From Minisyncoccota bacterium (GTDB lineage: Bacteria; Patescibacteriota; Minisyncoccia; UBA6257; 2-01-FULL-56-20), in NCBI GenBank assembly GCA_035509435.1, contig DATJLR010000003.1, forward strand, positions 11,853 to 75,852: a stretch of 64,000 bases of DNA, written 5' to 3'. Made by a program: the position numbers and the translations under genes. Below are positions 18,681 to 47,533 of the stretch, in pieces. A model generated the notes under the pieces. It worked only from the letters and a program-made list of their open reading frames with translations. It ran no database searches and was not told where the DNA came from. The stretch's first letter is position 1. The number at the start of each line of letters is the position of its first letter.

Positions 18681-18752
18681 ATCATTGGTTTATATTTCGG
18701 CGACCTTTTCGGACTGCTTACATAATACCCTATCTGGGATTAAATCTTTCAG

Positions 18753-20303
18753 TTAAAAATCCGCCACGGGCATCTCGTCGATGTCGGTATAGTCAATGCG
18801 TAGGTCGTCGAATACTGTGCCTGCGGTGTTATGGCCGCCGAGAGCGCCGGGTGCGACGCCGCCCGCGCCGCCCGATTCCTCACCTGCGCGACGGATGAAG
18901 TCGCCCTGCGCGGCGCGGAGCTCGTCTTCGCCAAAGCTCGCCAGATACTGCTCGGTGCGCGCGGAATCGGCGCGGAAGCCGGCGTCGAGCGCCCGAACGC
19001 GCGGCGACACTTGCAGGGCAAGCGCGTTGAAACCGATGAGCGAAATGTTGCGCAGCTCGCGCACGCGGGAGAGCGCCACGTAACCCATCCCGCGGTCGAA
19101 CGCGCGGCCAAGATCGATCACGGCGGCATCGAGCGTCATCCCCTGGCTTTTGTGGATCGTGATCGCCCACGCGAGCTTGAGCGGCAGCTGCGAGACGCTC
19201 GCCATGCGGTCGCGGCTCTTGCCGTCCTTGCCGCGGCCGCCGTCGCTGTCTCCCACGCGCCACTGGAAGCGGCCAAGCGTGATGCGCTTCTTGTCGAAAG
19301 TCATAATGACGGGATTCGCCTCGATGGCGCTCGCTGCCGCACCGCTCGCGCTGGCAGAATCGCCGTCGCCGCCCATCTCAAAGTCCACGACTTCGCCGAG
19401 CGTGCCGTTCACATATCCAACGCCCATGTTGTTTTTGGTGAACATCACGCGCGCGCCGATCTTGAGCGTCAGCTTGTCCGGCACGTCGTTGTCCTTCTTG
19501 AGCTTGTCCACCAGCACCGCGGGGCCGTTCGTGTACGCTTCGTAGATCACGTCCGGCGTTGCAAGCTTACGCAGTTCCGCGGCGTTGATCTCGTCCACGT
19601 TCTCGCGATGCGTGTAGAGCCGCGCGATGCCGATCGGCGCGGCGACCGTGGCGCCAATGCGGGCGTTCAGCTTTGCCGTGATGTCCGGCGTCACTTCGCC
19701 CGCGCGGATGGCGTCCAGGATCTCGAGCAGGTCATCGCCACTGCTGCTGCCCCTACCCGCAGCGCTTCCGCCCACCTGGCGATGCTGCTCCGTCAAATAG
19801 CACACGCGCATCTGCGCATTCTTCCACGCGGCGGAATCGATCACAAACTTCTCGGACTCGCCGTTCACTGGTGGAATCTGGAAGAAGTCACCGCAGCACA
19901 CGATCTGCAATCCGCCGAATGGCTCGCTGGAATTCCGCGCGGTGCGGCAGATCAGGTCCACGCGATCGAACTGCTCGGGATGCAGCATGGAGATCTCGTC
20001 TATAATAAGCACCCGTGCGCGGCGGATGCGGTCGGTCAGGTACTCGTTCGCGCGCACGCGGTCGCGCTCCTGCTTCTCGTCGGGGATCGGCCCGCGCGTC
20101 AGCCCCGCCCACGAATGGAGCGTGCGCCCGGAAAGGTGCGATGCGGCGATGCCGGTGTAGGCCGTCACGGCCACCTCCACCTCGTGGTCCTCAAGGAACC
20201 GGATGTACTCGTTCAGCAGGTACGTCTTCCCCGCCCCGGGCGCGCCGGTCAGGAACACGTTCTCGCCCGTCTTAAGGATGGCCAAAGCGGTGGATTGGAG
20301 CAT
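18753..20303 (-). CDS. Pif1/RecD-family (AAA_30/UvrD_C_2) ATP-dependent DNA helicase
   Basis: 516 aa; Walker A 'GAPGAGKTYLL', Walker B 'IIDEISML', motif V/VI 'WAITIHKSQGMTLD'. Confidence 0.8.
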   Translation of the reverse strand: MLQSTALAILKTGENVFLTGAPGAGKTYLLNEYIRFLEDHEVEVAVTAYTGIAASHLSGRTLHSWAGLTRGPIPDEKQERDRVRANEYLTDRIRRARVLIIDEISMLHPEQFDRVDLICRTARNSSEPFGGLQIVCCGDFFQIPPVNGESEKFVIDSAAWKNAQMRVCYLTEQHRQVGGSAAGRGSSSGDDLLEILDAIRAGEVTPDITAKLNARIGATVAAPIGIARLYTHRENVDEINAAELRKLATPDVIYEAYTNGPAVLVDKLKKDNDVPDKLTLKIGARVMFTKNNMGVGYVNGTLGEVVDFEMGGDGDSASASGAAASAIEANPVIMTFDKKRITLGRFQWRVGDSDGGRGKDGKSRDRMASVSQLPLKLAWAITIHKSQGMTLDAAVIDLGRAFDRGMGYVALSRVRELRNISLIGFNALALQVSPRVRALDAGFRADSARTEQYLASFGEDELRAAQGDFIRRAGEESGGAGGVAPGALGGHNTAGTVFDDLRIDYTDIDEMPVADF

Positions 20304-20306
20304 GTT

Positions 20307-20672
20307 CTAAAATTTTTCAATGTCCTTTGCTAGTTCTCGAAAGATGAAGACCCCTAATACAAGAACCGCTACGACATACAAGATTCCAACCGCCCAATGC
20401 GAAGAGAATTCAACTTCAAACAAAAATTGATATATACCAATGATTACTTGCACCAGCGCGAAGGCGATTAAAACCAACGAATATTTTCTGGTCGATTTAT
20501 CGAGTTCGTGAGCCGTTTTTCGATTCCTCAAAGCGGCCTTAATTTGAAGGATCGTTAATTTATGCATTTTCTGTTCCTCGACCATACCACTACTTGGAGG
20601 CCCTATGGTCTCAATTTCCCCTAGAAGATCTTGATCTTCAGATAGATATAGCTCCATGTTCTTATTATCCAT
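20307..20672 (-). CDS. small membrane protein, hypothetical (AT-rich, 3 nt upstream of helicase start)
   Basis: 121 aa, about 40% GC, two C-terminal TM helices. Confidence 0.45.
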   Translation of the reverse strand: MDNKNMELYLSEDQDLLGEIETIGPPSSGMVEEQKMHKLTILQIKAALRNRKTAHELDKSTRKYSLVLIAFALVQVIIGIYQFLFEVEFSSHWAVGILYVVAVLVLGVFIFRELAKDIEKF

Positions 20673-20752
20673 GCAAAAAGTTTACGCCACATCATAAAAT
20701 ACACAAGATTGACGAATTCGAAAGAATATATAAGATTGAGGGACGTACTAAA

Positions 20753-21709
20753 ATGGAACTCTTCTCGAAAAGATACTCGGCAAAAGGGCCTCGCAATGAC
20801 GTTATTCTTTCCGATACACTTAGAAAGCGTCTGGAACAGGAGTTAAAGTTCATAACTTCAAGTAAAGATTATATTGAAGCCTTTCTTTTGGTTGATAATG
20901 AAAAAGAGAATAAGATTTATTTGCATTCTCTTACCCTACGAGATTTAAGTTCTCGGGAGTTGGGTTATGATTTAACGTCCTTGGTTTACTGTAAAACTAT
21001 GGATTTCAATGCGAACCCCGATGATAATCAACTTCTAGACCTTATAGAACTATTAATCATTTTTTGTAAAGAAATAAACCGTAAAGAATTAATTGAGAGG
21101 TTACAAAACATCTTCAAGGAAGAGGGAGATCAATTTATAATTCACAATTTCATAATTTTTAAGAAGGATGAAACTGGGCTGAAATCTCTCGTGCCCTTAA
21201 TTAAAGATAAGAACCTCCAAGTCAAATTAGAGGAATACTTTACTGAAGCATCGAGAGGTAGTAAACCAAATTATGAGATGCTAGCCCGTATTGCTGCGGA
21301 TATTGTACAGATACTCTTTAGTGCTCCAAAGCAAAAAGAAACAAAAAAATATTCTGAACAATTATGTAGCGATATTGCATATAAATGGACGGATAAAAAG
21401 AATGCCCAAGCGTTGGCAATTCTCCTTAGTGAAACCGTTAAAAATGCTAAGGAACTAAGTAATCAGATTAGTAATATTCGACATACAGACAGAAGCACTA
21501 TACCAGTTAGAACGCCTAGCCTATATAGATTAATTGCCTTAAAAAATTCTTCAATTGCTGAAGTGGTTATACTTTCCTTGCCAGAAAATTATATTTTAGA
21601 CCAAAATCCGGAAGAGATTAAAAATCACTATCTCGGTAAATACAACCTCAAAGCTGATAATGGCTGGTTGGTTGAAGATGAAATAAAGCCGGAAGATATA
21701 CCTTTCTAA
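20753..21709 (+). CDS. hypothetical protein (AT-rich island)
   Basis: About 318 aa from the ATG at 20753, preceded by GAGGGA 9 nt upstream. The ORF track's 20594 start overlaps the opposite-strand gene. No recognisable motif. Confidence 0.45.
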   Translation: MELFSKRYSAKGPRNDVILSDTLRKRLEQELKFITSSKDYIEAFLLVDNEKENKIYLHSLTLRDLSSRELGYDLTSLVYCKTMDFNANPDDNQLLDLIELLIIFCKEINRKELIERLQNIFKEEGDQFIIHNFIIFKKDETGLKSLVPLIKDKNLQVKLEEYFTEASRGSKPNYEMLARIAADIVQILFSAPKQKETKKYSEQLCSDIAYKWTDKKNAQALAILLSETVKNAKELSNQISNIRHTDRSTIPVRTPSLYRLIALKNSSIAEVVILSLPENYILDQNPEEIKNHYLGKYNLKADNGWLVEDEIKPEDIPF

Positions 21710-21739
21710 AGCAAGACCAGATAGGCAACGACTCAATCT

Positions 21740-22927
21740 CTAAAAATTCTTAACAATAAGATGCTGCACGGCCCTATCATTCCTACCTTTCATATTGTAA
21801 GTGTATTTCTTATCGAACGAAGAGATGTTTATATTCTGCTTGCCTTTGTATAAGCCGTAGATGAACGACGTCCTTTTTATCACCAAAATAAATTTGGCCT
21901 TAGTGGTATATAAATAACGCGCAAGCCGAAATTGGTCATCACGATCAAAGCTTTTCTTTTCGTAATCACTGAAATCGGTATCGTATGGAGGGTCGAGGAA
22001 AATAAAATCTTTTGAAGAAAGCTTCAGTTTATTGAGAAATGTTTCAAAATCCTCGTTGTAAATTACCGCTCCTGCCAAGAGATTATGGGCCTCCAAAGAA
22101 AAGAGCCGGTCGACTTTCTTTCTAAAATTTTTAGTGTTGTACCCTATCCCTCCATATGGGATATTAAATTCTCCGTTGGCGTTAAATCGGAACATGGATC
22201 CATAGCAAAACTCTCGGATGAAATAATAGTTTGCGATGGCTTTTGCGCGGCTGATATGGTTCATTCCCCTTTTTTCATTCATAACATCCCTAAAATGCAT
22301 ATAAAATCCACTGCGAAATGCAGTCTCAATGTTCTTATGAAGATCCTCAATTGAGATCCTGCCGCTACTGAACTCAAGCTTTTTGACACGTGTGATCTTA
22401 TCAATGAGATTGTCAATGATGCGCTTTTCAAGATTATTCCTGTCTATACAAAAGTCCGCCCTGAACAGCCCATTGAATGCCTGAATTTGTCCGTGTATGT
22501 AATCTTCCGTAAGGCGACGCAGATCGTTTTTGCTAATAGAATCGGCAGCATAACGGGCGTACAAAGAGATGAACTGCCTCTGGAAAAGAAGGATGTAATT
22601 CGGAATTTTCTCCCAATTGAAGACATACTCATAGATTTCCTTAGAAAATTCTTTTGTATTATATTTCCCACCTACGAAGCGGTAAAAATCCATCAGCTCT
22701 ACGGCAATATCGTTGATGGCGGCTCTTTCTGGTTGTAACTCAAAAAATATCGCACCACCACCAAAGAACGGCTCAATATAGCGATCAAACGCAGGAATGT
22801 GATGCTTAATAAAAGAGAATTCCCGTTTTTTTCCGCCAGGCCACTTGATCAATGCCTGTGTATTAGGTGTGGATATCTCCCGATTGGAAGGTCGCAAGAG
22901 GTTCAAATCAATGTGCTGTTTTTGCAT
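21740..22927 (-). CDS. Dam-like (D12 class) N6-adenine DNA methyltransferase
   Basis: 395 aa; 'IKWPGGKK', 'EPFFGGGAIFFEL' (SAM binding), catalytic 'FLDPPYD'. Confidence 0.85.
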   Translation of the reverse strand: MQKQHIDLNLLRPSNREISTPNTQALIKWPGGKKREFSFIKHHIPAFDRYIEPFFGGGAIFFELQPERAAINDIAVELMDFYRFVGGKYNTKEFSKEIYEYVFNWEKIPNYILLFQRQFISLYARYAADSISKNDLRRLTEDYIHGQIQAFNGLFRADFCIDRNNLEKRIIDNLIDKITRVKKLEFSSGRISIEDLHKNIETAFRSGFYMHFRDVMNEKRGMNHISRAKAIANYYFIREFCYGSMFRFNANGEFNIPYGGIGYNTKNFRKKVDRLFSLEAHNLLAGAVIYNEDFETFLNKLKLSSKDFIFLDPPYDTDFSDYEKKSFDRDDQFRLARYLYTTKAKFILVIKRTSFIYGLYKGKQNINISSFDKKYTYNMKGRNDRAVQHLIVKNF

Positions 22928-23630
22928 TTTCTATAATTTTCTTTAGTTGTGAAATTTTTAAAATGTTATTGCGCTGTCGATGAACCATCCGATGGCAGTT
23001 TGAACACAGAGGAACGACTTTCTTCAACGCTTCATCCGCCGCCATCTTTTCTCCGGACGCTTCATGCTGATGAATAGGATGCGTGTGATGAATCTCGATA
23101 TAATCGCGGCCGCGTTCGCCGTAGAATTTCAAGAAATCGAACTCGCACGCTATGCAAGGAATTTTTCCGCCCTTCTTAAAGTGCGCCCTGGCAAGCTGGA
23201 TCAGTTTTCGCGACCGCTCTCTGAACGCAACATTTTTTGTCGAGAGAAATCCTTCTTCAACGATGATGTCTTTGTAGTCATCTTTGAATTCTTGCTCTCT
23301 TATCTCTTCACTGAAGCCCTGCTCCTGAAGCGCTTCAACAACTTCTTCATAACCAGCATTCAAATATCTTCTACCCTCGTCCGTAATGAAGAAAAGTTTG
23401 TCCTTATATATCGCAAGATTCTTCTTCTCTAAGGTATCGTGCGATTTTAGGTTGCGCACTTTTTGGCTGAACTTTGTATCGGTGCGGCCGCTGAGTATTT
23501 CAGCATCTTCCCCTTCGGGCTTCAGTGTGTCAGTTAATTCCTTGATAAGATACTCGGTCGGAACGCCTTCCGGATGGCGCTCGATGATCTTAAGGGCGGG
23601 AATTACGAGGTCCGATTCGGCGTAAATCAT
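22908..23630 (-). CDS. HNH-family endonuclease (probable restriction endonuclease partner of the Dam-like MTase)
   Basis: 240 aa; 'CIACEFDF...IEIHHTHPIH...PLCSNCHRMVH' HNH/zinc motif; 20-nt overlap with the MTase gene; AT-rich. Confidence 0.75.
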   Translation of the reverse strand: MIYAESDLVIPALKIIERHPEGVPTEYLIKELTDTLKPEGEDAEILSGRTDTKFSQKVRNLKSHDTLEKKNLAIYKDKLFFITDEGRRYLNAGYEEVVEALQEQGFSEEIREQEFKDDYKDIIVEEGFLSTKNVAFRERSRKLIQLARAHFKKGGKIPCIACEFDFLKFYGERGRDYIEIHHTHPIHQHEASGEKMAADEALKKVVPLCSNCHRMVHRQRNNILKISQLKKIIENAKTAH

Positions 23631-23735
23631 ACTCTAAGTTTAGCATATAGCCCCGAGAGGTGAATCTACTTGATATCCCCATGTCGATGAGGATATCCAC
23701 ATAGTATCTTATGCACTAGAACTGTCAAAAAATTT

Positions 23736-24190
23736 TTAATCCTTTTTTAACGAATCCCCCCATCCCCACTCGCTGTACCCCACGCCTTCGCGGTAGCAAC
23801 GGATCGCCTCGCGGATATAGGGAATGGTGTTTGCGGGCAAGGCGTCGAGCGGGAACCAGCGCAGGTCGTCGCACTTGCCGGGCTCCATGTTGGCCGCTCG
23901 CCGCTCCACGCCGCGGGCTCAAAGAAGAAGTCCAGCCGCTCGTCGTCGGCGCGGCGGTGCATCACAACCTTGAGCCGCAGGTCCGCAGCCCCGATCGTGA
24001 CGCCCGACTCCTCCATCGCCTCCCGCGCGGTGGCCGCCGTGAGCGCCTCGCCGCCATCGGCGTGACCGGCCACCAGGCTGTAATTGCCATCCTCGTAGCC
24101 GGTGTTTGCGCGGCGGAGCATCAGGATCTTTCCGTCCTTCACGAAAAGCACGTAGACGGAGGCGATAAGCTTGAAGCGATCGGCGGTCAT
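23736..24190 (-). pseudogene. Nudix hydrolase with apparent 1-nt frameshift near 23895-23905
   Basis: From ATG 24188-24190 the frame reads a Nudix fold ('MTADRF...LVAGHADGGEALTAATAREAMEESGV') up to '...[11 protein letters not shown]'. The conserved C-terminus '[42 protein letters not shown]' continues in the adjacent frame (stop at 23736-23738). Confidence 0.6.
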
Positions 24191-24210
24191 GAAAACATTG
24201 TAGCACCTTA

Positions 24211-24246
24211 TAAAAAAGAAAAGGCGCATCCCCGGAGGAATGCGCC
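24211..24246 (-). terminator. intrinsic terminator of gene 24269..25192 (copy 1 of GGCGCA...TGCGCC hairpin repeat)
   Basis: Minus-strand GGCGCATTCC-TCCGG-GGATGCGCC followed by TTTTCTTTTTTAT. Confidence 0.6.
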
Positions 24247-24268
24247 ATGTTTTTCACTTTGTGCCAAG

Positions 24269-25192
24269 CTAGATGACCATGTCGGCTTCGATCCGTGCGC
24301 GCACCGCCTGCACGGCGAGAGGAGCAACGTTCGCTCCTTTGAATATCGCCTTCTGGTCTTTTTCCTTCTTCGGCCAGTAGCGGATGACGTCTTCGATCAT
24401 GGCGAGGCCCGTGGAAAGGCTTGCATGGGTGGATTCGATCCCGGCTCCGAGCGCAAGACAATCATTGTCCGAGGTCATGAACCTGACATTCACCTCGTCA
24501 CCCCGCTTCTTGGGACGGGCAAAGGTGAATATCGTGCTTCCCGCAAAGATCCCCACCCGAAGCACCGTCGCCCCGAATTTCCCTTCCATTTCCCGATCGG
24601 GCTCTGCCCGGATGAGAGTGAAAAGTCCCCGCTGATAGACGAGACGAAGGAATTTGTCGAACTGCAGGTGCAGCGCGTGACGCTGGGCATTGAAGTAGAC
24701 GTCCATCTTTGCGTCCAGATGATCGTCTTGGACAATGGCCCTGATCACATTCTTGAGCAGATGAACTCCGACAATCTGATAGACGATATCTCCCGCTCCA
24801 AGCTCCACGAGATTGATCATTTGTTCGTCCCGCTCTTTCTCGTAAAGTTTCCGGAACCATACAACTGCGGGGTCTTCGCTTGTCCGCACCACTTCGTACG
24901 CGTCCAGGATAAGCTGCGGCAGGTGGAGGGTGAGGTCGTAAAATTCGTTCTTTTCGTCGGCGAGTATGGTAAGACCCTGGAGCCATCTGCTAAAGAACAG
25001 GGCAAATAATGCCTCACCTTTCTCGCTTGCGTTGGTGGAAGCGGCATGCATCCCTAACCGGAATATTACATCTGCTTTTTTCACTTTTGCTCCTTTATCC
25101 TTCATAAGAGGATTTACTGCTGACGAAATTGTACATTTAAATTCCAATTTCGTCAAAAGACAACGAGCCCATTCCTGGCGCTGGTCCTTCAT
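24269..25192 (-). CDS. hypothetical protein
   Basis: 307-aa ORF; GAGG 4 nt upstream of ATG; no recognisable domain; bracketed by near-identical 36-nt repeat copies. Confidence 0.5.
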   Translation of the reverse strand: MKDQRQEWARCLLTKLEFKCTISSAVNPLMKDKGAKVKKADVIFRLGMHAASTNASEKGEALFALFFSRWLQGLTILADEKNEFYDLTLHLPQLILDAYEVVRTSEDPAVVWFRKLYEKERDEQMINLVELGAGDIVYQIVGVHLLKNVIRAIVQDDHLDAKMDVYFNAQRHALHLQFDKFLRLVYQRGLFTLIRAEPDREMEGKFGATVLRVGIFAGSTIFTFARPKKRGDEVNVRFMTSDNDCLALGAGIESTHASLSTGLAMIEDVIRYWPKKEKDQKAIFKGANVAPLAVQAVRARIEADMVI

Positions 25193-25198
25193 CGCCTC

Positions 25199-25234
25199 AT
25201 AAAAAGAAAAGGCGCACTCCCGGAGGAATGCGCC
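25199..25234 (-). repeat. copy 2 of the 36-nt hairpin+T-run repeat, immediately 5' of gene 24269..25192
   Basis: ATAAAAAGAAAAGGCGCACTCCCGGAGGAATGCGCC, 2 mismatches versus copy 1 at 24211-24246; terminator-like hairpin ends 16 nt before the start codon. Confidence 0.6.
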
Positions 25235-25353
25235 CTTTGGTCAGGCCACTTCCGTCTCGATGTAGTGTGCCCACGAAAGCCAGATCTCCATCAGGACGGA
25301 TTGGTCCACGGCGTGGGCCGACGTTGATGGTATTTCTGTCATGCCCATTTCCC

Positions 25354-25382
25354 TTGACCACACCCTTCCGATGGCCTATCCT
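25354..25382 (+). promoter_or_regulatory. candidate sigma70 promoter for 25411..25950
   Basis: TTGACC (25354-25359), 17-nt spacer, TATCCT (25377-25382); RBS AAAGGAGAGGG; ATG 25411. Confidence 0.4.
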
Positions 25383-25410
25383 ATCCGGTGGAAAGGAGAG
25401 GGCACTCTCT

Positions 25411-25950
25411 ATGACATTCACAATTCAAAACCCTGAGGCTGATCCGGTGATCGCTAAACAGGCCACCGACGCGTTCGATCTGCTGACCCCGCATTGGAGG
25501 GAACTGCTTCCTCCGATCACCGCCATCATCGTAAATGAACGGTTCGACCGCATCGCGGATCTCCGGCCCATGATCGACGCCCGGTTCTCCAACTGGGGAG
25601 ACCATGAGTGGGAGCAGGTCTACGCTTTTTCACCCAAATACAGTTTGAATGAGGCCGAAGTGTGGCTCCGTCCGTACTATTCGTTCGATTCTTTTGCGCG
25701 AGAGGTGTATTGCCTCTTGGCACAGATCGTATGGACCACAACCCCGGACATTCGCGCCGAGGTCGCAGCGGCCACCCACAAATCATTTCACACGGCCAAT
25801 GCGGCTCTGTTGTATTTCAGCGTTTCCTTTGGACGCTTTTTTCTCAACCGAAAGCTTCTTCGTGAACGGAACCTGGCGGCATGGTTCCTCATGGAGCGCC
25901 TCGATGACCTGGTGGAAACCAAGCAGCTTCAGCGACTTCAGGTGACGTGA
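25411..25950 (+). CDS. hypothetical protein
   Basis: 179 aa from the ATG at 25411 with strong SD. The ORF track's 25228 start lacks an RBS. No recognisable domain. Confidence 0.5.
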   Translation: MTFTIQNPEADPVIAKQATDAFDLLTPHWRELLPPITAIIVNERFDRIADLRPMIDARFSNWGDHEWEQVYAFSPKYSLNEAEVWLRPYYSFDSFAREVYCLLAQIVWTTTPDIRAEVAAATHKSFHTANAALLYFSVSFGRFFLNRKLLRERNLAAWFLMERLDDLVETKQLQRLQVT

Positions 25951-26030
25951 TGGCGAACGATCGCCGTCTTCCGCAAAACTCGCGAGGCCCCGGCGCAATG
26001 TCGGGGCCTCTTTCTTTATTACGATGAATT

Positions 26031-26237
26031 TTATGCTGAAAGCTTCTTTACGATCTCGTCCCATGAATGCACGCGCTCGATCCCCGGCGGAAGCTCGCCC
26101 TGGTTCCATGGCTGATCAAAAAGGAACACCTTGATGCCGGCCTCGGCGCAGACCGTCGCGTTGGTCATGTGGTCCTCGATCATGATCGTGGCCCCAGAGT
26201 CCGCCACCACCTCGTCAAAATCAATGCCGATGCGCAT
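26031..26237 (-). pseudogene. HAD-superfamily 5'(3')-deoxyribonucleotidase-like remnant (internal deletion of core/cap)
   Basis: 68 aa: HAD motif I 'MRIGIDFDEVVADSG' joined directly to the C-terminal motif III/IV region 'IMIEDHMTNATVCAEAGIKVFLFDQPWNQ...RVHSWDEIVKKL'. Intact family members are about 180-200 aa. Confidence 0.5.
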
Positions 26238-26314
26238 GGGTTAATGATACCGTAAATAAGAAAGGGCGCCACCGTTTTAGTGACGCCCCTTGATCCACTG
26301 TAACCCTTCCCGGC

Positions 26315-26581
26315 CTATTTCATCGGCCATATTGCGGCCACGAAGATCCCCTGGCTTTCCTCGCGGCTGACGACGCGAGCGAAGGTCATTTCGTGGCCGC
26401 CCTCCAGACAGACCAAAAGCTTGCAATGCTTGCCCATGGCGAGCAACTGAAGAAAGCAGTCCATGCCCTCGACAAGCGCTCGCGGCCCTGTGAAGTCGCC
26501 GAATTTTTGGACCACTTTTTCGGCGCTCACACCATTCGCGTCACACCCTTCAACGCTCGTCCTGATTACCTTTTCGATCAT
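26315..26581 (-). CDS. hypothetical small protein
   Basis: 88-aa ORF between the HAD remnant and HIT gene; no recognisable motif. Confidence 0.35.
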   Translation of the reverse strand: MIEKVIRTSVEGCDANGVSAEKVVQKFGDFTGPRALVEGMDCFLQLLAMGKHCKLLVCLEGGHEMTFARVVSREESQGIFVAAIWPMK

Positions 26582-26666
26582 GTAAAGCCTCCTCTTCTTT
26601 TCGCAGCTGCAAATCTGCCAACAATATACATCCGGGCAGGAATGGAGTCAATCGCAATCCGCGCGT

Positions 26667-27110
26667 TTACATCGCTGCGGCGATCTCCTTTGCCACCGCA
26701 TCGAGCTCCGCTTCCGGCGTCGTCTCGCGCGAGCCGGGCCGGTACAGGAACTTGCGCGGCTCGTATTCGGTGATGCCCTCGTCCCCTGCCGTGCGCGGCA
26801 CGATGTGCAGATGGAAGTGCGGGATGGATTGCCCGGCCACGGCGCCTTCGTTCCAGGCATGATTGAAGCCCGTGGCGCCGAACGCTTTCCAGAGCGCGGC
26901 CTTCACCTCCGCCGCGAGCGCAAAGATCGCGCGGCGCTCGTCGTCCTTCAGTTCATCGAACGTCGCCACGTGCCGCGCCGGGATCACAAGCGTGTGCCCG
27001 GGCGTGATCGGGATGTTCGTCAGGAACGCGATCGCAAGCTCGTTGCGCTTGACCGTGCGCGCCGGAATGTCCGGCAATGTGCAATAGATGCAAGAGGAAG
27101 ATGCGGCCAT
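26667..27110 (-). CDS. HIT-family (histidine triad) nucleotide hydrolase
   Basis: 147 aa; 'HFHLHIVPR' histidine triad; N-terminal 'CIYC' zinc-like motif. Confidence 0.85.
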   Translation of the reverse strand: MAASSSCIYCTLPDIPARTVKRNELAIAFLTNIPITPGHTLVIPARHVATFDELKDDERRAIFALAAEVKAALWKAFGATGFNHAWNEGAVAGQSIPHFHLHIVPRTAGDEGITEYEPRKFLYRPGSRETTPEAELDAVAKEIAAAM

Positions 27111-27111
27111 A

Positions 27112-27675
27112 TTATTTGTGGCCGAAGATCTTCTCTTTCAGCTCCTTTTTGAATTCAGGGTCGAATTGCGTGCGCAATAAATATAATGCCAGCTCTTTAT
27201 CGCGAAAATCCGGCCGTTGGGAAAGTTCCAGAAATTCATCGAACGAAACGGGCTTTATAGTGATCCTCTCACCCGCATCAAGATGCGGGTCCTGGATATG
27301 CTTACAGTCACGTGCGATGAAAGTATAAACGGTCCATTCAAGAGAATTGAATGGCTTCCGCTCCCTGAACATGGTCCAATCATCCGAAACGTATCCGGTC
27401 TCTTCCAAAAGCTCACGTTTGGCTCCCGTCGACGCTTCCTCTCCTTCATTACATCGGCCGCCCGGAATAGAAACAAACGGCGCCCGATGTGGTTGCTCCT
27501 GTTCCTCGATCAAAATTTTATCTCCCACGACCGCGATCACATCCGCGCTGTCCGGCCGGCTGATCTTCTCGTATATCTCGGTCGTCCCATCGAACACTTT
27601 CTGTTCCCATTGCCACACCTCGAACACCTGCCCTTTGAACATCCGTTTTGCGTTCGGTGGAATTCCTTTTTTCAT
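27112..27675 (-). CDS. Nudix hydrolase (ADP-ribose pyrophosphatase-like)
   Basis: 187 aa; Nudix box 'GGRCNEGEEASTGAKRELLEETGY'; separated from the HIT gene by 1 nt. Confidence 0.85.
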   Translation of the reverse strand: MKKGIPPNAKRMFKGQVFEVWQWEQKVFDGTTEIYEKISRPDSADVIAVVGDKILIEEQEQPHRAPFVSIPGGRCNEGEEASTGAKRELLEETGYVSDDWTMFRERKPFNSLEWTVYTFIARDCKHIQDPHLDAGERITIKPVSFDEFLELSQRPDFRDKELALYLLRTQFDPEFKKELKEKIFGHK

Positions 27676-27930
27676 ATCATTTATTTTTGAGTGCTAAATA
27701 TTCCTGAACGCCCTTCAGCCATCCTCCTTTAAAATAATTTTCTTGTTTGAAATCTTTCGGGGCCACCCACAAGAGTTCCGATGGCGCTCGTTCATACCAC
27801 CTATTAAAGCATCCTTGGCAGTCTTTCGTCTATTATGTGCCAATAACGGCCGTTTTTCCACTTTTAAAATAGTTTTAATCGCTTATTTGTTATAGTCCCG
27901 TCAGTTGTTTAAAAACTGAAAGGGGTTTTT

Positions 27931-28674
27931 GTGAAGCTATCAAAAATGCAATTCGCAACCGTGGGTCTCGAGCTCCTGACCCTCACCATCTTCGCGTCCA
28001 CAGCAATCGGACAGGCACGGCAAAATGTTGTGCATCAGGCATTCTATGCCTTAAGCACATCCGCCAATGGAACCTCCACCCAAACCATCAACGGTAATTA
28101 TGTCGGCAACTGGAACTGGCTCAACAGCAATTACAGCTCCTACAATGTCGTCAAAAATTGGTACAACTATTACCAAAACGGCAGCTGGACATGCTATCCG
28201 TCAGATTTTGCCGCAGCTGGCGACGTGTGCCCAAATCTCACCGGCCATCCCGTCGCGAGTTTCTATTCCAATCCTGGCGGCTATGGCTATAGCCCGATTA
28301 TCCCTGAGGTTGCCTATGGCCGCGGCGGTCAATGCACTTATTTTGCGAACCTTGTCGTCTATCGCTCGGGAGTCTACACCGGAAGTTTCCCGAGCCTATC
28401 CAATATGTGGGCTGCTGGAAACTCCAATATGCAACAGGTCCAGATCGGGGACGTGATCCTGAGGTACAACGTCGCTGGCTATGTCAATCATATCGCCATT
28501 GTGGTACAGGTCTATACGAATGGCGGTTCCGTGACAAGCGTTGACGTCGTCGATTCGGATTACTTCCCTGATTATCTTTCGGGCGTAAGTTACCCGGAAG
28601 TGATCACACGGCACAATTTCCCCATCGCCAACCTGCAGGGATATTTCAGGATATGGAAGGTGCCCGGCTACTAA
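27931..28674 (+). CDS. secreted CHAP-domain peptidoglycan amidase/peptidase
   Basis: 247 aa; GTG start 5 nt after GAAAGGGG; signal/TM; catalytic Cys in 'GGQCTYFANLVVY' and His in 'VNHIAIVV', typical CHAP spacing. Confidence 0.65.
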   Translation: MKLSKMQFATVGLELLTLTIFASTAIGQARQNVVHQAFYALSTSANGTSTQTINGNYVGNWNWLNSNYSSYNVVKNWYNYYQNGSWTCYPSDFAAAGDVCPNLTGHPVASFYSNPGGYGYSPIIPEVAYGRGGQCTYFANLVVYRSGVYTGSFPSLSNMWAAGNSNMQQVQIGDVILRYNVAGYVNHIAIVVQVYTNGGSVTSVDVVDSDYFPDYLSGVSYPEVITRHNFPIANLQGYFRIWKVPGY

Positions 28675-28751
28675 AAACCAAGTTCTGGAGGGGTAAAACA
28701 ACCCCTCCATTTTTTAATCTTTTTTTAATGTTAATATGCTATGCTCATCTT

Positions 28752-29348
28752 ATGAAAAAATTATTAAACAGAAAATATATCGCTTTTGCTTGCATGGTCA
28801 CGGTCACAATCGTTGCCATCGGATGCATTTTCCTGTGGCGATATCACTTTAGCCCCGTTCAATCCCGCACCTCAACGATGGCTCTCCCCGAAATTCAAAC
28901 ACCTTCAGGCTGGTATTTGTGGGGAAAAGATCATCTTCCTGCGGGCACTAACGGCCCCGTCAATAACATTACCTTCGGAAATAAGCCAATGGCATCAGCG
29001 GACGATGCGGCGACCATGATAGTTGTTAACGCGCAAGATCCCTTTGGAAGAACCGATGAGCAATGGATTGCTGATGTCCTCTCCTCTTCCCTGGAAGAGC
29101 TGGGAAGTCCTACATCCACGCGGCTGTGGAGTGCGATCAATGGGAGGCTCGTACTAAGGGCGGTAACGCAAACACCTGCGGGTGGCTATGATCTTAATTA
29201 CTATATCCTTAATGATGGGGTGGAATATATATTCCAACTTGATCCGACACATGCCGATGATAATATATCATCCAGCTCCGACGCACAGACGCTGCACACC
29301 ATGGTTCAGAATTTTGCCGAGAGCCTGCCGCCCATCGTTTCTCAATAA
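28752..29348 (+). CDS. membrane-anchored hypothetical protein downstream of CHAP gene
   Basis: About 198 aa from the ATG at 28752 (MKKLLNRK...), N-terminal TM helix. Confidence 0.45.
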   Translation: MKKLLNRKYIAFACMVTVTIVAIGCIFLWRYHFSPVQSRTSTMALPEIQTPSGWYLWGKDHLPAGTNGPVNNITFGNKPMASADDAATMIVVNAQDPFGRTDEQWIADVLSSSLEELGSPTSTRLWSAINGRLVLRAVTQTPAGGYDLNYYILNDGVEYIFQLDPTHADDNISSSSDAQTLHTMVQNFAESLPPIVSQ

Positions 29349-29359
29349 ATAATAGGGTT

Positions 29360-29397
29360 AAAAAAAGCCCTAACAGTTCCGTTGGGGCTTTTTTTCT
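29360..29397. terminator. bidirectional intrinsic terminator
   Basis: AAAAAAAGCCCTAAC-agttcc-GTTGGGGCTTTTTTTC. Confidence 0.7.
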
Positions 29398-29403
29398 TTC
29401 ATT

Positions 29404-29637
29404 CTACGCCGCAGGCAACTCCTTTTCGTCCGGCAACGCCGCGAACTTGGCCTTAAAATCTTCGAACCACTTCGTGGTCTCTTCCGGCTTCATCGCCTTC
29501 ACCTGCGCCGCAAGGTCGGGATGCGCCGCTTCGACGTGCTTCATCGCCTCCGCCACCACTTCCTCCGGCGCAGTGCCGGTGAACACCGTCGTGCACGTTG
29601 CCGGGCCGCCCATCGAAGGGCATGTCACCTGTTTCAT
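29404..29637 (-). CDS. DUF1059-family small protein
   Basis: 77 aa; 'MKQVTCPSMGGPATC...' resembles DUF1059 small Cys-containing proteins. Confidence 0.55.
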   Translation of the reverse strand: MKQVTCPSMGGPATCTTVFTGTAPEEVVAEAMKHVEAAHPDLAAQVKAMKPEETTKWFEDFKAKFAALPDEKELPAA

Positions 29638-29689
29638 GTTGCTTATATATAGATTAGATTTATTTTTTATCGACCGATCTGAATGATCA

Positions 29690-32600
29690 TTATAGCATGG
29701 ACCCTATCCCTTTCCGTAGCTCGCAGTACCGGCAATCCGGATCATGGCAGCCCTTGTTCCAGAACGAGAGGTCCAGTATCTCGCGCGCGACGTCCATCAC
29801 AAGTTTTTCAAGCACTTTCACCTCGCCGGGCGCGATCGCGAACTCCTCGCGATGCATCTTGCCGCGGTCGTCCGGTTCCACGAACTGGATGATGCCGTCG
29901 CGCATGTCGCGCTTCCCCTCCTTGTCGAGCAGCAGTTTATAGAACACGAGCTGGCGCTTGTAATTGCCGTCGCTCGATTTGGTGAGCCCCTCGATCTCGT
30001 TGCGCGTCTTGGGCTTGCCGGTCTTGTAGTCCACGACCCGCACCCGCTCGCCGTCCAAAAATTCCACGCGGTCCAGCTTGCCGTTGATCGGCGTGCCGTC
30101 CTCGAGCGTGATGCCGTCAATGCGCGCCTCGGCAAGCGCCCGCGGCGACCACGTCGCGTGATACTCGTCATAGAAAAGCGGCAGTGCACGCCGGCCCTTT
30201 TCGAGCGCCTCCTCGTACTCGCTCTCTTTTATCGGCTCGTGCGCGAGGGCTTCCTCAAAACGGCGGACAAGATATTCCTTTCCGCGATCCACGCCCGGCG
30301 CGCCGTCAGCGCCGCCGCTCAACGCGTCAAAATAACTTTTGAGCGCGGCGTGCACCGCGTTGCCGAACGACAGATTTTTGTTCGGTGCTTCCGGGATGCG
30401 CACAAGGTTGCGGTAGAAATATATCCATGGGCATTCAAGGTAATTGTTGAGCGCCGTCACGGAAATGCCTTGCGCGCGGAAAAGTTCGTTCAAAAATTCT
30501 TTGTCTTTGAGCTCGGGCACCCGCGCGGGCGCTGGCGCGAACTCGATCTCCTCGCGCCGCGCGGCAAAATCCTTCTCGTACGGCGCGACATCGAGCGGCG
30601 CCAGGATATTTTCCTTGAGCTCCGCGATGAACTGCGTCGGCAGCTGCTCCTTGCCGTCACGATCCGCCTTTGCAAGCGTCACGAACAGTTCCTTTCGCGC
30701 GCGCGTGAGGGCGACATAGAAGACGTTGCGTTCGTCCGCGTCATCGATCGCGCTCGCATCGTCATCATTCGCACCATCAGCATCCGCGGCAGCGCCCGTC
30801 GCCGCGCCTTCCGCCATCGCTCTATATATTCGTGTCGGCAGCTTGATCGCTTCGCGGCGGCGGCGCGATCCCCACTTGCCGTCCACGGCGTTCATGATGA
30901 AGACCACGTCGAACTCCAGTCCCTTCGCGCGGTGCGCGGTCATGAGCCGCACACGGCCGGGCAAGCGCACGGTGTCGGCGCTGCGGATCGCAAGGCCATG
31001 CTCTTCCATCAGGTCCAGATAGCGGAAAAAATCGTCCAGCGTGTAATTTTTCTGGCGTTCAACGAACGATTTCAAGATGTCAAAAAGCGCGTGGAGCTTT
31101 GCCAGTTTTTCCGTCGCGGACGGATGGTTCAGCGCCGTTGTCAGGAATCCCGACTCGTAGACGATCTTTTCAAAAGCCTCCGCCGCGCCGCGGTTTTTTG
31201 CCGCCCGAGACCAGGCCGAAAGCCCCTCAAAAAGCCGCCCATAGGCCATTTTTGAGCCATTATCCATGCCTGCCGCCTCAAGCAGGGCCGGCGACCGCAC
31301 CACCTCATAGAGCCGCCTGTGCTCACGGGCGGCATAGGCCGTCAGCTTATAGACATCGATCGGCGCGATGCCCAGAAAATCCACGTGCAGCGCCTCCGCG
31401 AGCGCCACGTCATTGCCGAACCGCTGGACCGCCCGCAGGATCCGCACCAGTTTTTTTATTTCTTCATCCCCCAACACGTCCTGATCCGACTCGATGCTGA
31501 ACGGCACCTTTTCCTTTTCAAGCATTCGCGCGAGCGGCACGACGTCGCGATTGTCGCGATAGAGCACCGCGACCTCCTCCGCCGGGGTCCGGTCATCCAC
31601 GTCCGACGCGGTTGCGATCAGCTCTTTTATTTTTTGTGCGATGAAATAATATTCCACGTCGGGTGACGCGAGCGCGGCGAGATGCGCGGGACTTTCCTTG
31701 CGCCCCGCGCGCGCCGCATGCCGTGCGTGCGCCACGAGCGCGGCATCGCGCGGCGACACGCCTTGCGCCGCGTCGAGGATCGCTTGCGTGGATCGGTAAT
31801 TGTTGCGTAATGTGATAAGCACAACATCTTTGTAGCGATCGCGGAAGTAGTGGAAGTTCTCGAGCGACGCGCCCTGAAAACGGAATATCGCCTGCTTCTC
31901 GTCGCCGACGACGAAAAGGTTCGGGCGCGGCGCGGCGCCTGCCACAAGTTCCACGATCCGGTTCTGCGCGTCATTCGTATCCTGATGTTCGTCCACCAAA
32001 AAATATTCGTATGAGCCCTGCAAAACACGGAGCAGTTCATCGCTCGCTTCGAGCGCGAGCGCGACGTACATGATCATATCGCTGTAGTCGTACTGTTTGG
32101 CCGCAACGAGCGCTTTCTGATACGCCGCGTACACTTCCGCGAGCTCGAGGTTGCGCTCGGCGTGCTTCGCCGCGCTCACATATTTTGTTTTTATCTTCCC
32201 TTCATATTTGCCGGACCGGTTCACAAGGTCCGGATCGGCATACAGGTCGCGCTTCGCGTCCGCGGCGATCGCGGCGAACGTCCCGGGCGACACGCCCTGG
32301 CGCTTCAGCTCATTGATCGCGCCGAGGATCGCGCGCAGATAATAGTAGCGGTCACCGAACGGACGCATGTCCCGCAAGCCGGGCAGCGTGTCGATCAGCC
32401 GCCGCAGGATGTCCACCTGCTCTATCTCGGTGATGCTCGTCGCGCCCACGATCGTCGGAAAATAGTCCGGATAGTCGCGGATGATGCGGTTCGCAAAGCC
32501 GTGGAACGTGGAGATCTCCACGCGATAGGCCTCCGCGCCCGCAAGCTCCACCAGGCGTCGGCGCATGGAGACGGCACCGGACTCGGTGAAGGTGAGCGCG

Positions 32601-32785
32601 AGGATCTTCTCCGGTGCCGCGGCGGAGCGCCGCAAAATATTCGCAATGCGCATCGCAAGCACCTCCGTCTTTCCCGTCCCCGGTCCCGCGATCACCATTA
32701 CCGGGCCATCAAGTGTGTCCACCGCGCGGCGCTGTTCGTCGTTCAGCGCCCCATATCGTTCCTCAAAAGCATCCGTGATCGGCAT
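29690..32785 (-). CDS. UvrD/Rep-family helicase fused to C-terminal PD-(D/E)XK (RecB/Cas4-like) nuclease domain with 4-Cys cluster
   Basis: 1031 aa; Walker A 'IAGPGTGKTEVL', 'DEHQDTN', 'FRFQGAS', 'VYVALTRARKELFV'; C-terminal 'C...VDYKTGK...CHDPDCRYC' nuclease/Fe-S signature. Confidence 0.8.
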   Translation of the reverse strand: MPITDAFEERYGALNDEQRRAVDTLDGPVMVIAGPGTGKTEVLAMRIANILRRSAAAPEKILALTFTESGAVSMRRRLVELAGAEAYRVEISTFHGFANRIIRDYPDYFPTIVGATSITEIEQVDILRRLIDTLPGLRDMRPFGDRYYYLRAILGAINELKRQGVSPGTFAAIAADAKRDLYADPDLVNRSGKYEGKIKTKYVSAAKHAERNLELAEVYAAYQKALVAAKQYDYSDMIMYVALALEASDELLRVLQGSYEYFLVDEHQDTNDAQNRIVELVAGAAPRPNLFVVGDEKQAIFRFQGASLENFHYFRDRYKDVVLITLRNNYRSTQAILDAAQGVSPRDAALVAHARHAARAGRKESPAHLAALASPDVEYYFIAQKIKELIATASDVDDRTPAEEVAVLYRDNRDVVPLARMLEKEKVPFSIESDQDVLGDEEIKKLVRILRAVQRFGNDVALAEALHVDFLGIAPIDVYKLTAYAAREHRRLYEVVRSPALLEAAGMDNGSKMAYGRLFEGLSAWSRAAKNRGAAEAFEKIVYESGFLTTALNHPSATEKLAKLHALFDILKSFVERQKNYTLDDFFRYLDLMEEHGLAIRSADTVRLPGRVRLMTAHRAKGLEFDVVFIMNAVDGKWGSRRRREAIKLPTRIYRAMAEGAATGAAADADGANDDDASAIDDADERNVFYVALTRARKELFVTLAKADRDGKEQLPTQFIAELKENILAPLDVAPYEKDFAARREEIEFAPAPARVPELKDKEFLNELFRAQGISVTALNNYLECPWIYFYRNLVRIPEAPNKNLSFGNAVHAALKSYFDALSGGADGAPGVDRGKEYLVRRFEEALAHEPIKESEYEEALEKGRRALPLFYDEYHATWSPRALAEARIDGITLEDGTPINGKLDRVEFLDGERVRVVDYKTGKPKTRNEIEGLTKSSDGNYKRQLVFYKLLLDKEGKRDMRDGIIQFVEPDDRGKMHREEFAIAPGEVKVLEKLVMDVAREILDLSFWNKGCHDPDCRYCELRKGIGSML

Positions 32786-32871
32786 GACAAAAGCTTACTC
32801 TCAAAATCTCCGTAACTCAATAAAAGAAAACAACCCCTCCTATATCAGGAAGGGTTGTTTTCTTTTGCGCC

Positions 32872-34086: not shown

Positions 34087-34114
34087 AAAAAGCCCCGCGC
34101 GCGCGGGGCTTTTT
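34087..34114. terminator. bidirectional intrinsic terminator
   Basis: AAAAAGCCCCGCGC/GCGCGGGGCTTTTT. Confidence 0.65.
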
Positions 34115-39461: not shown

Positions 39462-39490
39462 AAAAATCCCCGCGCGCGCGGGGATTTTTA
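39462..39490. terminator. bidirectional intrinsic terminator shared by two convergent small ORFs
   Basis: AAAAATCCCCGCGCGCGCGGGGATTTTTA. Confidence 0.65.
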
Positions 39491-46811: not shown

Positions 46812-46874
46812 GTGATCTTATTGTAACGCCGCCCACGGCATGCGTGAAGGGCGCCCGACGACAGTATGCGATCG

Positions 46875-47255
46875 CTAAAACACTCCCGGCACCAGGTGCC
46901 ACCGCACCTTCGCGCAATATTCTTTGTAGCCGGCCAAATTTTGCGCAAGAAATTTTTCCTCGTCATATAACCGCCACACGAGGCCGAGGCTCGCAAAGAT
47001 GTCAGGGATGGATCGATAGCACCGAGAAAGAAAAAGGCGCACCACGTGGATGCGCCTTGCACTCAAACGGCCGCCGGCTTATTTCCCGATCTTCCGAAAT
47101 TGCCGGATACCCAACACAAGGAGAACAGCAAGATACAATCCGCAAAAAACAAGGATCCACCGCACCGCCACCAGCTGGGCCGAAGTCAGGGAATAATCCG
47201 GCTCCGCGTGAAGGACGGCGTGGGGCATCAAAGTCATGAGAAACGCCATTGCCAT
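46875..47255 (-). pseudogene. ICMT/PEMT-family methyltransferase remnant interrupted by in-frame TAA (47079-47081) and carrying an embedded terminator-like hairpin
   Basis: Track ORFs 47079..47495 and 46875..47066 are in the same frame, separated by one stop. The C-terminal part 'VWRLYDEEKFLAQNLAGYKEYCAKVRWHLVPGVF' matches the ICMT/PEMT C-terminal motif. The central 'RHPxY' region is missing. Confidence 0.4.
47026..47056 (-). repeat. copy 3 (diverged) of GGCGCA...TGCGCC hairpin+T-run element, inside ICMT remnant
   Basis: Minus strand GGCGCATCCACGTGGTGCGCC + TTTTTCTTTC; shares the AAAGAAAAAGGCGCA...TGCGCC architecture with copies at 24211 and 25199. Confidence 0.5.
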
Positions 47256-47533
47256 AACGCCTCCGCTGGAATCTTTATAGTACAGGCCGGGGTAAAAGGA
47301 AAGGGCGCGGTCCGGGAAGGAACGCGCCCCATGTCGTTTTCGCCTGTCACCCCAAATGTGGAAATGGACGCTGCGGCCTCGACGAGCTTCTTGTGGACCG
47401 AGTTCAGTTGCGGCTCGTTGAGCTTGGGCAAACACCACGCTTTGACCACCAGCATATCCTATCCTCCTAAAATGGAACTGGGCATACGATAGCACTTTTT
47501 TATAATCCGGGCAAATATGGGGAGCACTGCTTC

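Follow-up and report, generated by a model that had tools for sequence, protein, structure and literature searches.

A pair of near-identical predicted terminators bracketing a single gene in a variable island of a Minisyncoccota genome

Rho-independent terminators normally share only their structure, so near-identity in sequence between the terminators of neighbouring genes is unusual. Several described systems do, however, place similar palindromes beside or around genes. REP/BIME, Correia/NEMIS and RUP/BOX elements, which resemble miniature inverted-repeat transposable elements (MITEs) and often serve as terminators or mRNA stabilisers, are short palindromes at the 3' ends of genes that may affect transcription; they occur in tens to hundreds of copies, have conserved ends and often go with a RAYT or insertion sequence (IS) transposase. 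Integron cassettes, with their attC sites, and Acinetobacter pdif or other Xer-exploiting elements hold a single gene between hairpin-capable repeats and vary among relatives. IS200/IS605-type elements and their non-autonomous derivatives are short segments bounded on either side by similar subterminal hairpins that lie on one strand and point the same way, and in attenuators, riboswitches and T-box leaders a terminator hairpin lies upstream of the gene on its coding strand. Here we describe a locus that recalls each of these, in a stretch of 64,000 nt from a Minisyncoccota bacterium (GenBank assembly GCA_035509435.1, contig DATJLR010000003.1, positions 11,853 to 75,852; hereafter, the window), where two near-identical hairpins, each followed by a T-run, bracket one gene just upstream of a NUDIX hydrolase gene.

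Our analysis leads us to regard the pair as probably two working intrinsic terminators of common duplication origin, flanking a self-contained promoter-gene unit in a variable island. Termination itself, promoter activity, the direction of the event (insertion or loss) and the mechanism of the duplication are what we infer from comparing sequences. Coordinates are those of the window throughout, and the bracketed gene, both hairpins and the NUDIX gene all lie on the minus strand.

The hairpin pair and the unit it brackets

A search of the window for the 28-nt core of the repeat, which reads AAAAGGCGCA[TC/CT]CCCGGAGGAATGCGCC on the plus strand, returned exactly two sites, 24219-24246 and 25207-25234, against a chance expectation of 0.00 (100 shuffles). 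The two hairpin and T-run copies are spaced by 988 bp. Copy 1 (24211..24246) reads GGCGCATTCC-TCCG-GGGATGCGCC on the minus strand (24246-24223; a 10-bp stem with the loop UCCG), followed by TTTTCTTTTTT, with its T-run at 24222-24212. Copy 2 (25199..25238) has the core GGCGCATTCC-TCCG-GGAGTGCGCC (25234-25211), followed by TTTTCTTTTT, and its stem can be extended to 14 pairs (25238-25207). The 34-nt cores differ at two neighbouring positions of the 3' stem arm, which read GA in one and AG in the other, and pairing is kept in both copies because these substitutions merely shift a single G-U wobble by one position. Since the A/T-runs differ in length by 1 nt, 36-nt windows drawn around the two copies are in register only across the 34-nt core. 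An initial annotation, made from the sequence alone, had located this near-identical pair and counted its two differences correctly, while treating the copies as 36-nt repeats of equal length. Past the repeat, similarity between the flanks of the two copies is at chance level downstream and non-significant upstream.

Both copies are predicted to be strong Rho-independent terminators of the minus strand, as had been proposed from the first. Each has a stem of 10-14 pairs, seven of them GC, a 4-nt loop and the T-run TTTTCTTTTT; taken together with its closing pair, the loop reads C(UCCG)G and is one of the stable UNCG type. Both were called by a terminator scan, and both are among the 10 sites that a stricter scan returned for the whole 64 kb. 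The predicted folding energies are -23.3 kcal/mol on the minus versus -15.7 on the plus strand for copy 1 (z -4.4) and -28.4 versus -20.9 kcal/mol for copy 2 (z -3.9), an advantage of about 7.5 kcal/mol for the minus strand in each case. Each copy also lies shortly 3' of a stop codon on its own strand. Copy 1 begins 22 nt past the TAG (24271-24269) of the bracketed gene and is predicted to be that gene's own terminator, in agreement with the initial annotation; copy 2 begins 2-6 nt past a TGA (25243-25241) that closes the remnant of another gene, described below.

The role of copy 2 depends on where the bracketed gene begins. The longest open reading frame (ORF) is, mechanically, one of 307 codons (24269..25192), and NCBI, where the source is a metagenome-assembled genome (MAG) of Candidatus Paceibacterota, annotates 278 aa from ATG 25105. 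We re-annotate the gene as 271 aa from a GTG (24269..25084). In an alignment of 80 homologues, at least 90% have their Met-1 where this GTG 25084 falls; the closest of these (P0002, 67% identity) begins MKKADVIF, and a split homologue from another organism (L002) begins MHKKELIS. A Shine-Dalgarno (SD) sequence, AAAGGAG (25096-25090), stands 5 nt ahead of it. At ATG 25192, by contrast, a GAGG lies merely 2 nt before the codon, and the first 36 codons are without counterpart in any homologue. ATG 25192 is almost certainly not the real start codon, and the 307-aa gene of the initial annotation is an over-extension. The apparent terminator within a leader, 16 nt before an ATG, arose because the longest ORF had been taken as the gene.

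The gene is likewise no orphan, as had been supposed: a profile search returned 275 cluster representatives (clusters at 50% identity) at E<=1e-3 and 70 at E<=1e-30, and a second search gave 15 matches. The named sources of the family are so far only Paceibacterota and Harrisonbacteria records.

Between the hairpin of copy 2 and GTG 25084 we predict a sigma70-type promoter (25128..25156), with the -35 box TTGACG (25156-25151), a 17-nt spacer and the -10 box TACAAT (25133-25128). The same place on a 1.2-kb ENA contig that carries a homologue with 67% amino acid identity (L001) reads TTGACG-17-TATACT, with a wholly different spacer middle, and the equivalent place upstream of a 48% homologue (L039) reads TTGACT-17-TATTTT. 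Hexamers kept around a diverged spacer are, on sequence grounds, the classic footprint of a functional promoter. An operator-like inverted repeat of 10/11 nt, TTGACGAAATT-N15-AATTTCGTCAg (25120-25156), spans the -35 box and the predicted start site in the window; it is not kept in L001, where the spacer middle is replaced.

The 5' leader (25085..25122) contains the SD sequence and a conserved 25-nt stretch, CAGCAGTAAATCCTCTTATGAAGGA (25122-25098), which is 25/25 identical in L001 (161-185) despite silent-site saturation of the coding sequence; its core, CCTCTTATGAAGGAG, also occurs in L039 (about 2975-2992). A small leader stem could pair as AUCCU/AGGAU in the window and CUCCU/AGGAG in L039. 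We considered a mini-hairpin sequestering the SD sequence in this conserved leader and discarded it as energetically non-significant (z about -0.5). Upstream of the promoter, a spacer of about 45 nt (25157..25198) separates the T-run of copy 2 from the -35 box and holds ATG 25192. This spacer is absent in L001, where the T-run ends 2 nt from the -35 box, and neither it nor the left flank of L001 is similar to any related locus compared.

Because the predicted, conserved promoter sits between hairpin and start codon, copy 2 falls outside the bracketed transcription unit. A promoter downstream of the upstream copy is what the initial annotation had named as speaking against its readings, and it is essentially what we find, as a predicted and conserved element rather than one mapped from transcripts.

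Origin of the pair and rival explanations

The L001 contig carries both hairpins at the same positions as the window. Over the 34-nt core neither L001 copy differs from the other or from window copy 2 (34/34), and window copy 1 keeps 32 of the 34 positions. As L001 carries both, the pair predates the split of the two lineages, and as both persist at 67% amino acid identity and a gene dS of about 1.4, both copies have been maintained. The upstream hairpin is the precise point at which homology between window and L001 starts, and to its left the two sequences are unrelated. To the right of that boundary the divergence is mosaic. The hairpins, both promoters and the 25-nt leader stretch are 87-100% identical, whereas the bracketed coding sequence is 70% identical (dN 0.23, dS 1.38) and the 3' untranslated region cannot be aligned; over the first 47 NUDIX codons dS is 0.37. 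The dN/dS of 0.17 indicates that the bracketed gene is functional. Four-fold sites (window 24050-25084 versus L001) differ at 49 of 86 positions in the bracketed gene and at 5 of 22 in the NUDIX 5' end (Fisher p=0.008), in a comparison of two genomes and one short flank of 47 codons. This contrast hints that either the gene or the NUDIX gene was exchanged by recombination with a breakpoint at copy 1.

Immediately upstream of copy 2 lies the 3' remnant of a 140-aa gene (25241..25315), comprising its last 24 codons (HAVDQSVLMEIWLSWAHYIETEVA) and the TGA at 25243-25241. The remnant (25315..25244) matches the last 24 residues of a 140-aa protein at 58% identity (tblastn, E=1e-5), and its DNA alignment score of 48 was reached by none of 3000 shuffles. 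As the match ends at the TGA just before the hairpin, copy 2 would be the terminator of this since-truncated gene. Beyond the remnant, a 179-aa gene runs in the opposite direction and has a promoter and a terminator of its own.

Loci of relatives were fetched with the NUDIX gene downstream of copy 1 as a synteny anchor. In two of them (L029 and L030, NUDIX 74% identical) the order is a YbjQ-like gene, the intact 140-aa gene, a terminator, TATAAT and the NUDIX gene. The bracketed gene is absent there, and the terminator is of another sequence, GCCGTCGAC-TAAGG-GTCGGCGGC TTTTT. In L031-L033 the genes upstream of NUDIX differ. In the window the order is remnant, terminator, 45-nt spacer, promoter, 271-aa gene, terminator, extended -10, 6 nt and the NUDIX ATG. 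A comparison of relatives for the bracketed gene, which the initial annotation had suggested, is informative in that the gene is present in L001 and missing at the L029/L030 locus. Judged from these gene orders, it looks like an insertion, or like a unit lost in the closest relative, with a duplicated terminator module.

Members of the family found elsewhere (L034 from Harrisonbacteria, L035-L038 and L039) stand in different neighbourhoods and have ordinary single terminators, and the upstream and downstream flanks of these homologues share no word of 10 nt or more. As far as these flanks show, bracketing by repeats is not a property of the gene family. An apparent synteny of L039 with the window, through 88-aa and 68-aa genes upstream, proved to be a coincidence of length, the genes not being homologous.

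We therefore propose, as the probable history, that both terminators stand in a row of closely spaced single-gene transcription units, all of which run in one direction. Copy 2 would be the terminator of the 140-aa gene, of which the last 24 codons survive, and would now act as an insulator ahead of the bracketed gene's own sigma70-type promoter; copy 1 would end the 271-aa gene, the extended -10 of NUDIX following at once. A single duplication of a terminator module of about 36-45 nt would account for the near-identity of the copies, and it may have been tied to the event that brought promoter and gene to their place between NUDIX and the 140-aa gene, no later than the common ancestor of the window genome and L001. 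Both copies may since have been kept by selection for termination, possibly with gene conversion between them.

Several points weigh against this history. Termination and promoter use are predictions, and all that now precedes copy 2 is a piece of a gene, an ORF of 33 codons at the most. Insertion and deletion look alike, because recombination between the repeats may have removed the gene from L029. Beyond the repeat, the flanks are without similarity and so give no clue to the mechanism of duplication. The 34/34 identity of copy 2 between genomes in which 57% of the four-fold sites of the bracketed coding sequence differ is poorly explained by structural selection alone. Finally, the GGCGCA/TGCGCC stem is common to three of the window's 10 strongest terminator-like sites.

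In a rival reading, the terminator and promoter modules act as short homology arms, or as the site of an unknown recombinase, by which the gene, as one unit, would be inserted, excised or swapped for a divergent allele. The initial annotation had likewise thought of a mobile or recombined cassette. Direct repeats of 34-45 nt do flank one gene, which is present or absent among related loci of a variable island; the homology with L001 begins right at the upstream hairpin, next to unrelated left flanks; the four-fold and dS contrasts between the gene and NUDIX place a jump in divergence at copy 1; the L001 copies do not differ from one another; and the family member in another organism, L002, adjoins an IS30-like transposase gene. 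The absence of the gene in L029/L030, the 140-aa remnant, the island and the mosaic divergence speak for some such event, and to this extent the cassette idea of the initial annotation is partly supported. We nevertheless consider recombinational exchange of this kind unlikely. None of the genes called within +/-10 kb encodes an integrase, transposase or recombinase, the hairpin with its 4-nt centre has no attC or dif features, and in L034, L035 and L039 the family member has one ordinary terminator and is not flanked by repeats. The flank estimate comes from 47 codons, the 25/25 identity of the leader puts the left breakpoint at the start codon rather than at hairpin 2, and the arrangement occurs in only two genomes. 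In its general form, the proposal would be that conserved terminator and promoter modules in small genomes of the Candidate Phyla Radiation (CPR) are portable homology arms, or sites for an unrecognised recombinase, and that single genes are exchanged as terminator-bounded cassettes. In its favour are the repeat itself, the variable presence of the gene among relatives, a limit of homology that falls at the hairpin and a silent divergence about 3.7 times higher in the gene than in the flank; we hold it to be rather improbable. The other mechanism that the initial annotation had offered, a leader attenuator in which transcription from upstream is halted at copy 2 unless an antiterminator acts, could call on the strong same-strand terminator upstream of the gene and on the longest ORF, which begins 18 nt past the stem. 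That ORF is not the gene, whose start is at GTG 25084, and with copy 2 outside the transcription unit the attenuator reading fails on its defining feature. In L001 the T-run ends 2 nt from the promoter, the sequence upstream of the hairpin is the 3' end of another gene, no antiterminator pairing is evident, an Rfam scan of 23500-26500 (E<=1) found no leader family, and homologues elsewhere are without such an upstream hairpin. We regard attenuation at copy 2 as very improbable.

The remaining alternatives concern the hairpin sequence itself. Were it a dispersed small mobile repeat of the REP or MITE kind that doubles as a terminator, the two copies and a third site near 47 kb would be transposed members of one family. 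The third site (47034..47058, minus strand), AAGGCGCATCC-ACGTG-GGTGCGCCTT followed by TTTCTTTC, lies 21 nt past the stop of an ORF (47079..47495, minus strand), within broken reading frames. Three GGCGCA-N-TGCGCC hairpins with a T-run thus occur in 64 kb, all of them among the 10 strongest terminator-like sites, where about 0.12 GGCGCA-N8-14-TGCGCC sites are expected per window by chance. The third site shares only the outer GGCGCAT..TGCGCC stem and the interrupted T-run with the pair, with a shorter stem, another loop and about 75% likeness; given the chance rate, its relatedness is not demonstrable, and it is at most a possible relative rather than the diverged copy first described. Moreover, no copies of the hairpin were found in about 30 kb of the related Paceibacterota loci L029-L033, and there are no terminal inverted repeats past the stem, no target duplications and no RAYT or Y1 transposase gene nearby. 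We also scanned collections, which did not include the source genome, with a hairpin pattern that left the loop and the wobble positions free: reference genomes (596 Gb) gave 23 matches, all in unrelated taxa and most followed by a T-run, metagenome contigs two unrelated matches and viral contigs one. A dispersed family, as the initial annotation had suggested, is therefore unsupported in the window, the related loci and public collections, and we think it quite improbable. The same scans bear on independent convergence, in which unrelated terminators came to be alike because an optimal terminator combines such a GC-rich stem with a UNCG loop. Since unrelated bacteria carry the same 24-nt hairpin, identical or nearly so in 23 genomes, the hairpin is a generic, convergently arising terminator design rather than a lineage-specific signal, and the window has a second look-alike pair made of simple CG repeats. 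Those 23 matches were drawn from 596 Gb, however, not from 64 kb. The pair agrees over a 34-nt core that includes the interrupted T-run TTTTCTTTT, at a distance of 988 bp and with 0.00 expected, and the same pair recurs in L001. Convergence of the two copies is already disfavoured by these statistics, and we give it the least credence of all.

If the pair arose by duplication, as we think probable, the locus is overall an ordinary feature. It offers a clean, small example of gene gain or loss in a variable island of a reduced CPR genome, in which the island genes are self-contained terminator-promoter-gene units and a terminator module was duplicated in the process. Should the mosaic divergence hold in more genomes, regulatory modules would appear as recombination anchors for allele exchange, which, if true, would be moderately interesting for understanding how the genomes of uncultured bacteria change.

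Neighbouring genes and other features of the window

The NUDIX hydrolase gene (23747..24190) lies directly downstream of copy 1. Reading from the sequence, we place an extended -10 promoter, TGCTACAAT, at 24197..24205, 6 nt before the ATG (24190); it overlaps the tail of terminator copy 1. Its spacing to the ATG is identical in L001 and L029, which suggests that the NUDIX mRNA is probably leaderless. The gene is frameshifted near 23885-23895: residues 1-104 of its relatives fit 24190..23879, and the conserved C-terminus fits another frame, 23891..23760, at 93-95% identity. L029 moves into the same alternative frame at a different point, and the frameshift sequence is identical on all three contigs that have the gene. 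It could reflect a recent pseudogene, recoding or a systematic assembly error.

The variable island extends over about 18750-32800, from a PIF1-type helicase gene (18753..20303, minus strand) to a UvrD/PDDEXK helicase gene (29690..32785, minus strand), and it holds a different set of genes in every related locus that was fetched. Its genes in the window include low-GC (35-40%) ones for a D12-class adenine methyltransferase and an HNH/type IV restriction-like protein at 21740-23630, together with two NUDIX genes, a HIT gene and an NT5C fragment.

The bracketed protein gave no sequence-profile match in Pfam, NCBIfam, PHROGs or the PDB. A weak hit to Csx16 (E about 1e-3, 17.5 bits), from searches of Pfam, NCBIfam, PHROGs and PADLOC, was treated as noise, and a search for viral relatives found none. 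An AlphaFold2 (AF2) model has a pLDDT of 94; an earlier one built from three sequences (pLDDT 50) was discarded as too poor. With the confident model, no convincing fold relative was found in the PDB or BFVD, and the family may merit a separate look for this combination. In L002, from an organism of lower GC content, a 42% homologue (282-2157) is split into ORFs of 66 and 168 aa and is probably a pseudogene; it divergently adjoins the IS30-like (HTH_38) transposase gene mentioned above.

The region around the third site, between an MscS-like gene and an NTPase (DUF84) gene (46812-47533), contains only overlapping, poor ORFs. The initial annotation had placed a broken isoprenylcysteine carboxyl methyltransferase (ICMT) gene here; neither Pfam (E<=10) nor the PDB confirmed it, and a C-terminal fragment, LVWRLYDEEKFLAQNLAGYKEYCAKVRWHLVPGVF, resembles ICMT/PEMT by eye only. 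Among the look-alikes in collections, one site in an alphaproteobacterial MAG (L010, QBLX01000005.1, 2997-3020, minus strand) matches copy 1 over all 24 nt of the hairpin, GGCGCATTCCTCCGGGGATGCGCC, and continues with T7. The second look-alike pair in the window (34087-34114 and 39462-39489, 26/28 alike) consists of perfectly palindromic bidirectional terminators, AAAAA[G/T]CCCCGCGCGCGCGGGG[C/A]TTTTT, which lie 5.4 kb apart and bracket genes that include a 1131-aa repeat-containing ORF. Because their flanks are unrelated and their sequence is simple, this (CG)n pair is probably convergent.

Comparison with known systems

In the literature we found nothing directly relevant on terminator duplications flanking acquired genes, so the locus is best placed by its features. 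Compared with REP/BIME-type repeats, it has two, perhaps three, copies in 64 kb and none in the loci of relatives, and apart from stem and T-run the copies have no conserved ends. No transposase gene lies within +/-10 kb, and the unrelated flanks of the copies give no sign of target duplication.

Integron cassettes differ in more respects. The hairpin has no GTT/AAC core, and neither R''/L''/L'/R' boxes nor a GTTRRRY core nor a 6-8-bp centre is seen; no IntI or Xer gene is nearby, no integrase being found within +/-10 kb. Integron cassettes usually lack a promoter; the bracketed unit has its own predicted promoter, and its repeats are canonical terminators with T-runs. Xer/dif sites are 28 nt long and have two 11-nt arms around a centre of 6-8 nt, whereas the hairpin has 10-nt arms and a 4-nt centre with no tyrosine recombinase nearby, and GC skew indicates no replication terminus at the locus. 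Relative to IS200/IS605-type elements, the cargo is without similarity to TnpA (Y1) or TnpB in sequence or predicted fold, and the ends are perfect terminator hairpins with no evident target or cleavage motifs.

In attenuators and riboswitches the terminator lies between promoter and start codon; here the hairpin is upstream of the predicted promoter (25156-25128). No alternative structure or sensing element was recognised and Rfam gave no match, the sequence upstream of the hairpin being a coding remnant.

The closest likeness is to Rho-independent terminators. Both copies agree with that class in their GC-rich stem of 10-14 bp, 4-nt UNCG-type loop and U-run, in their position 2-22 nt past a stop codon and in the better fold of the transcribed strand. 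What sets them apart is that two neighbours are near-identical in sequence and that one of them follows only a gene fragment.

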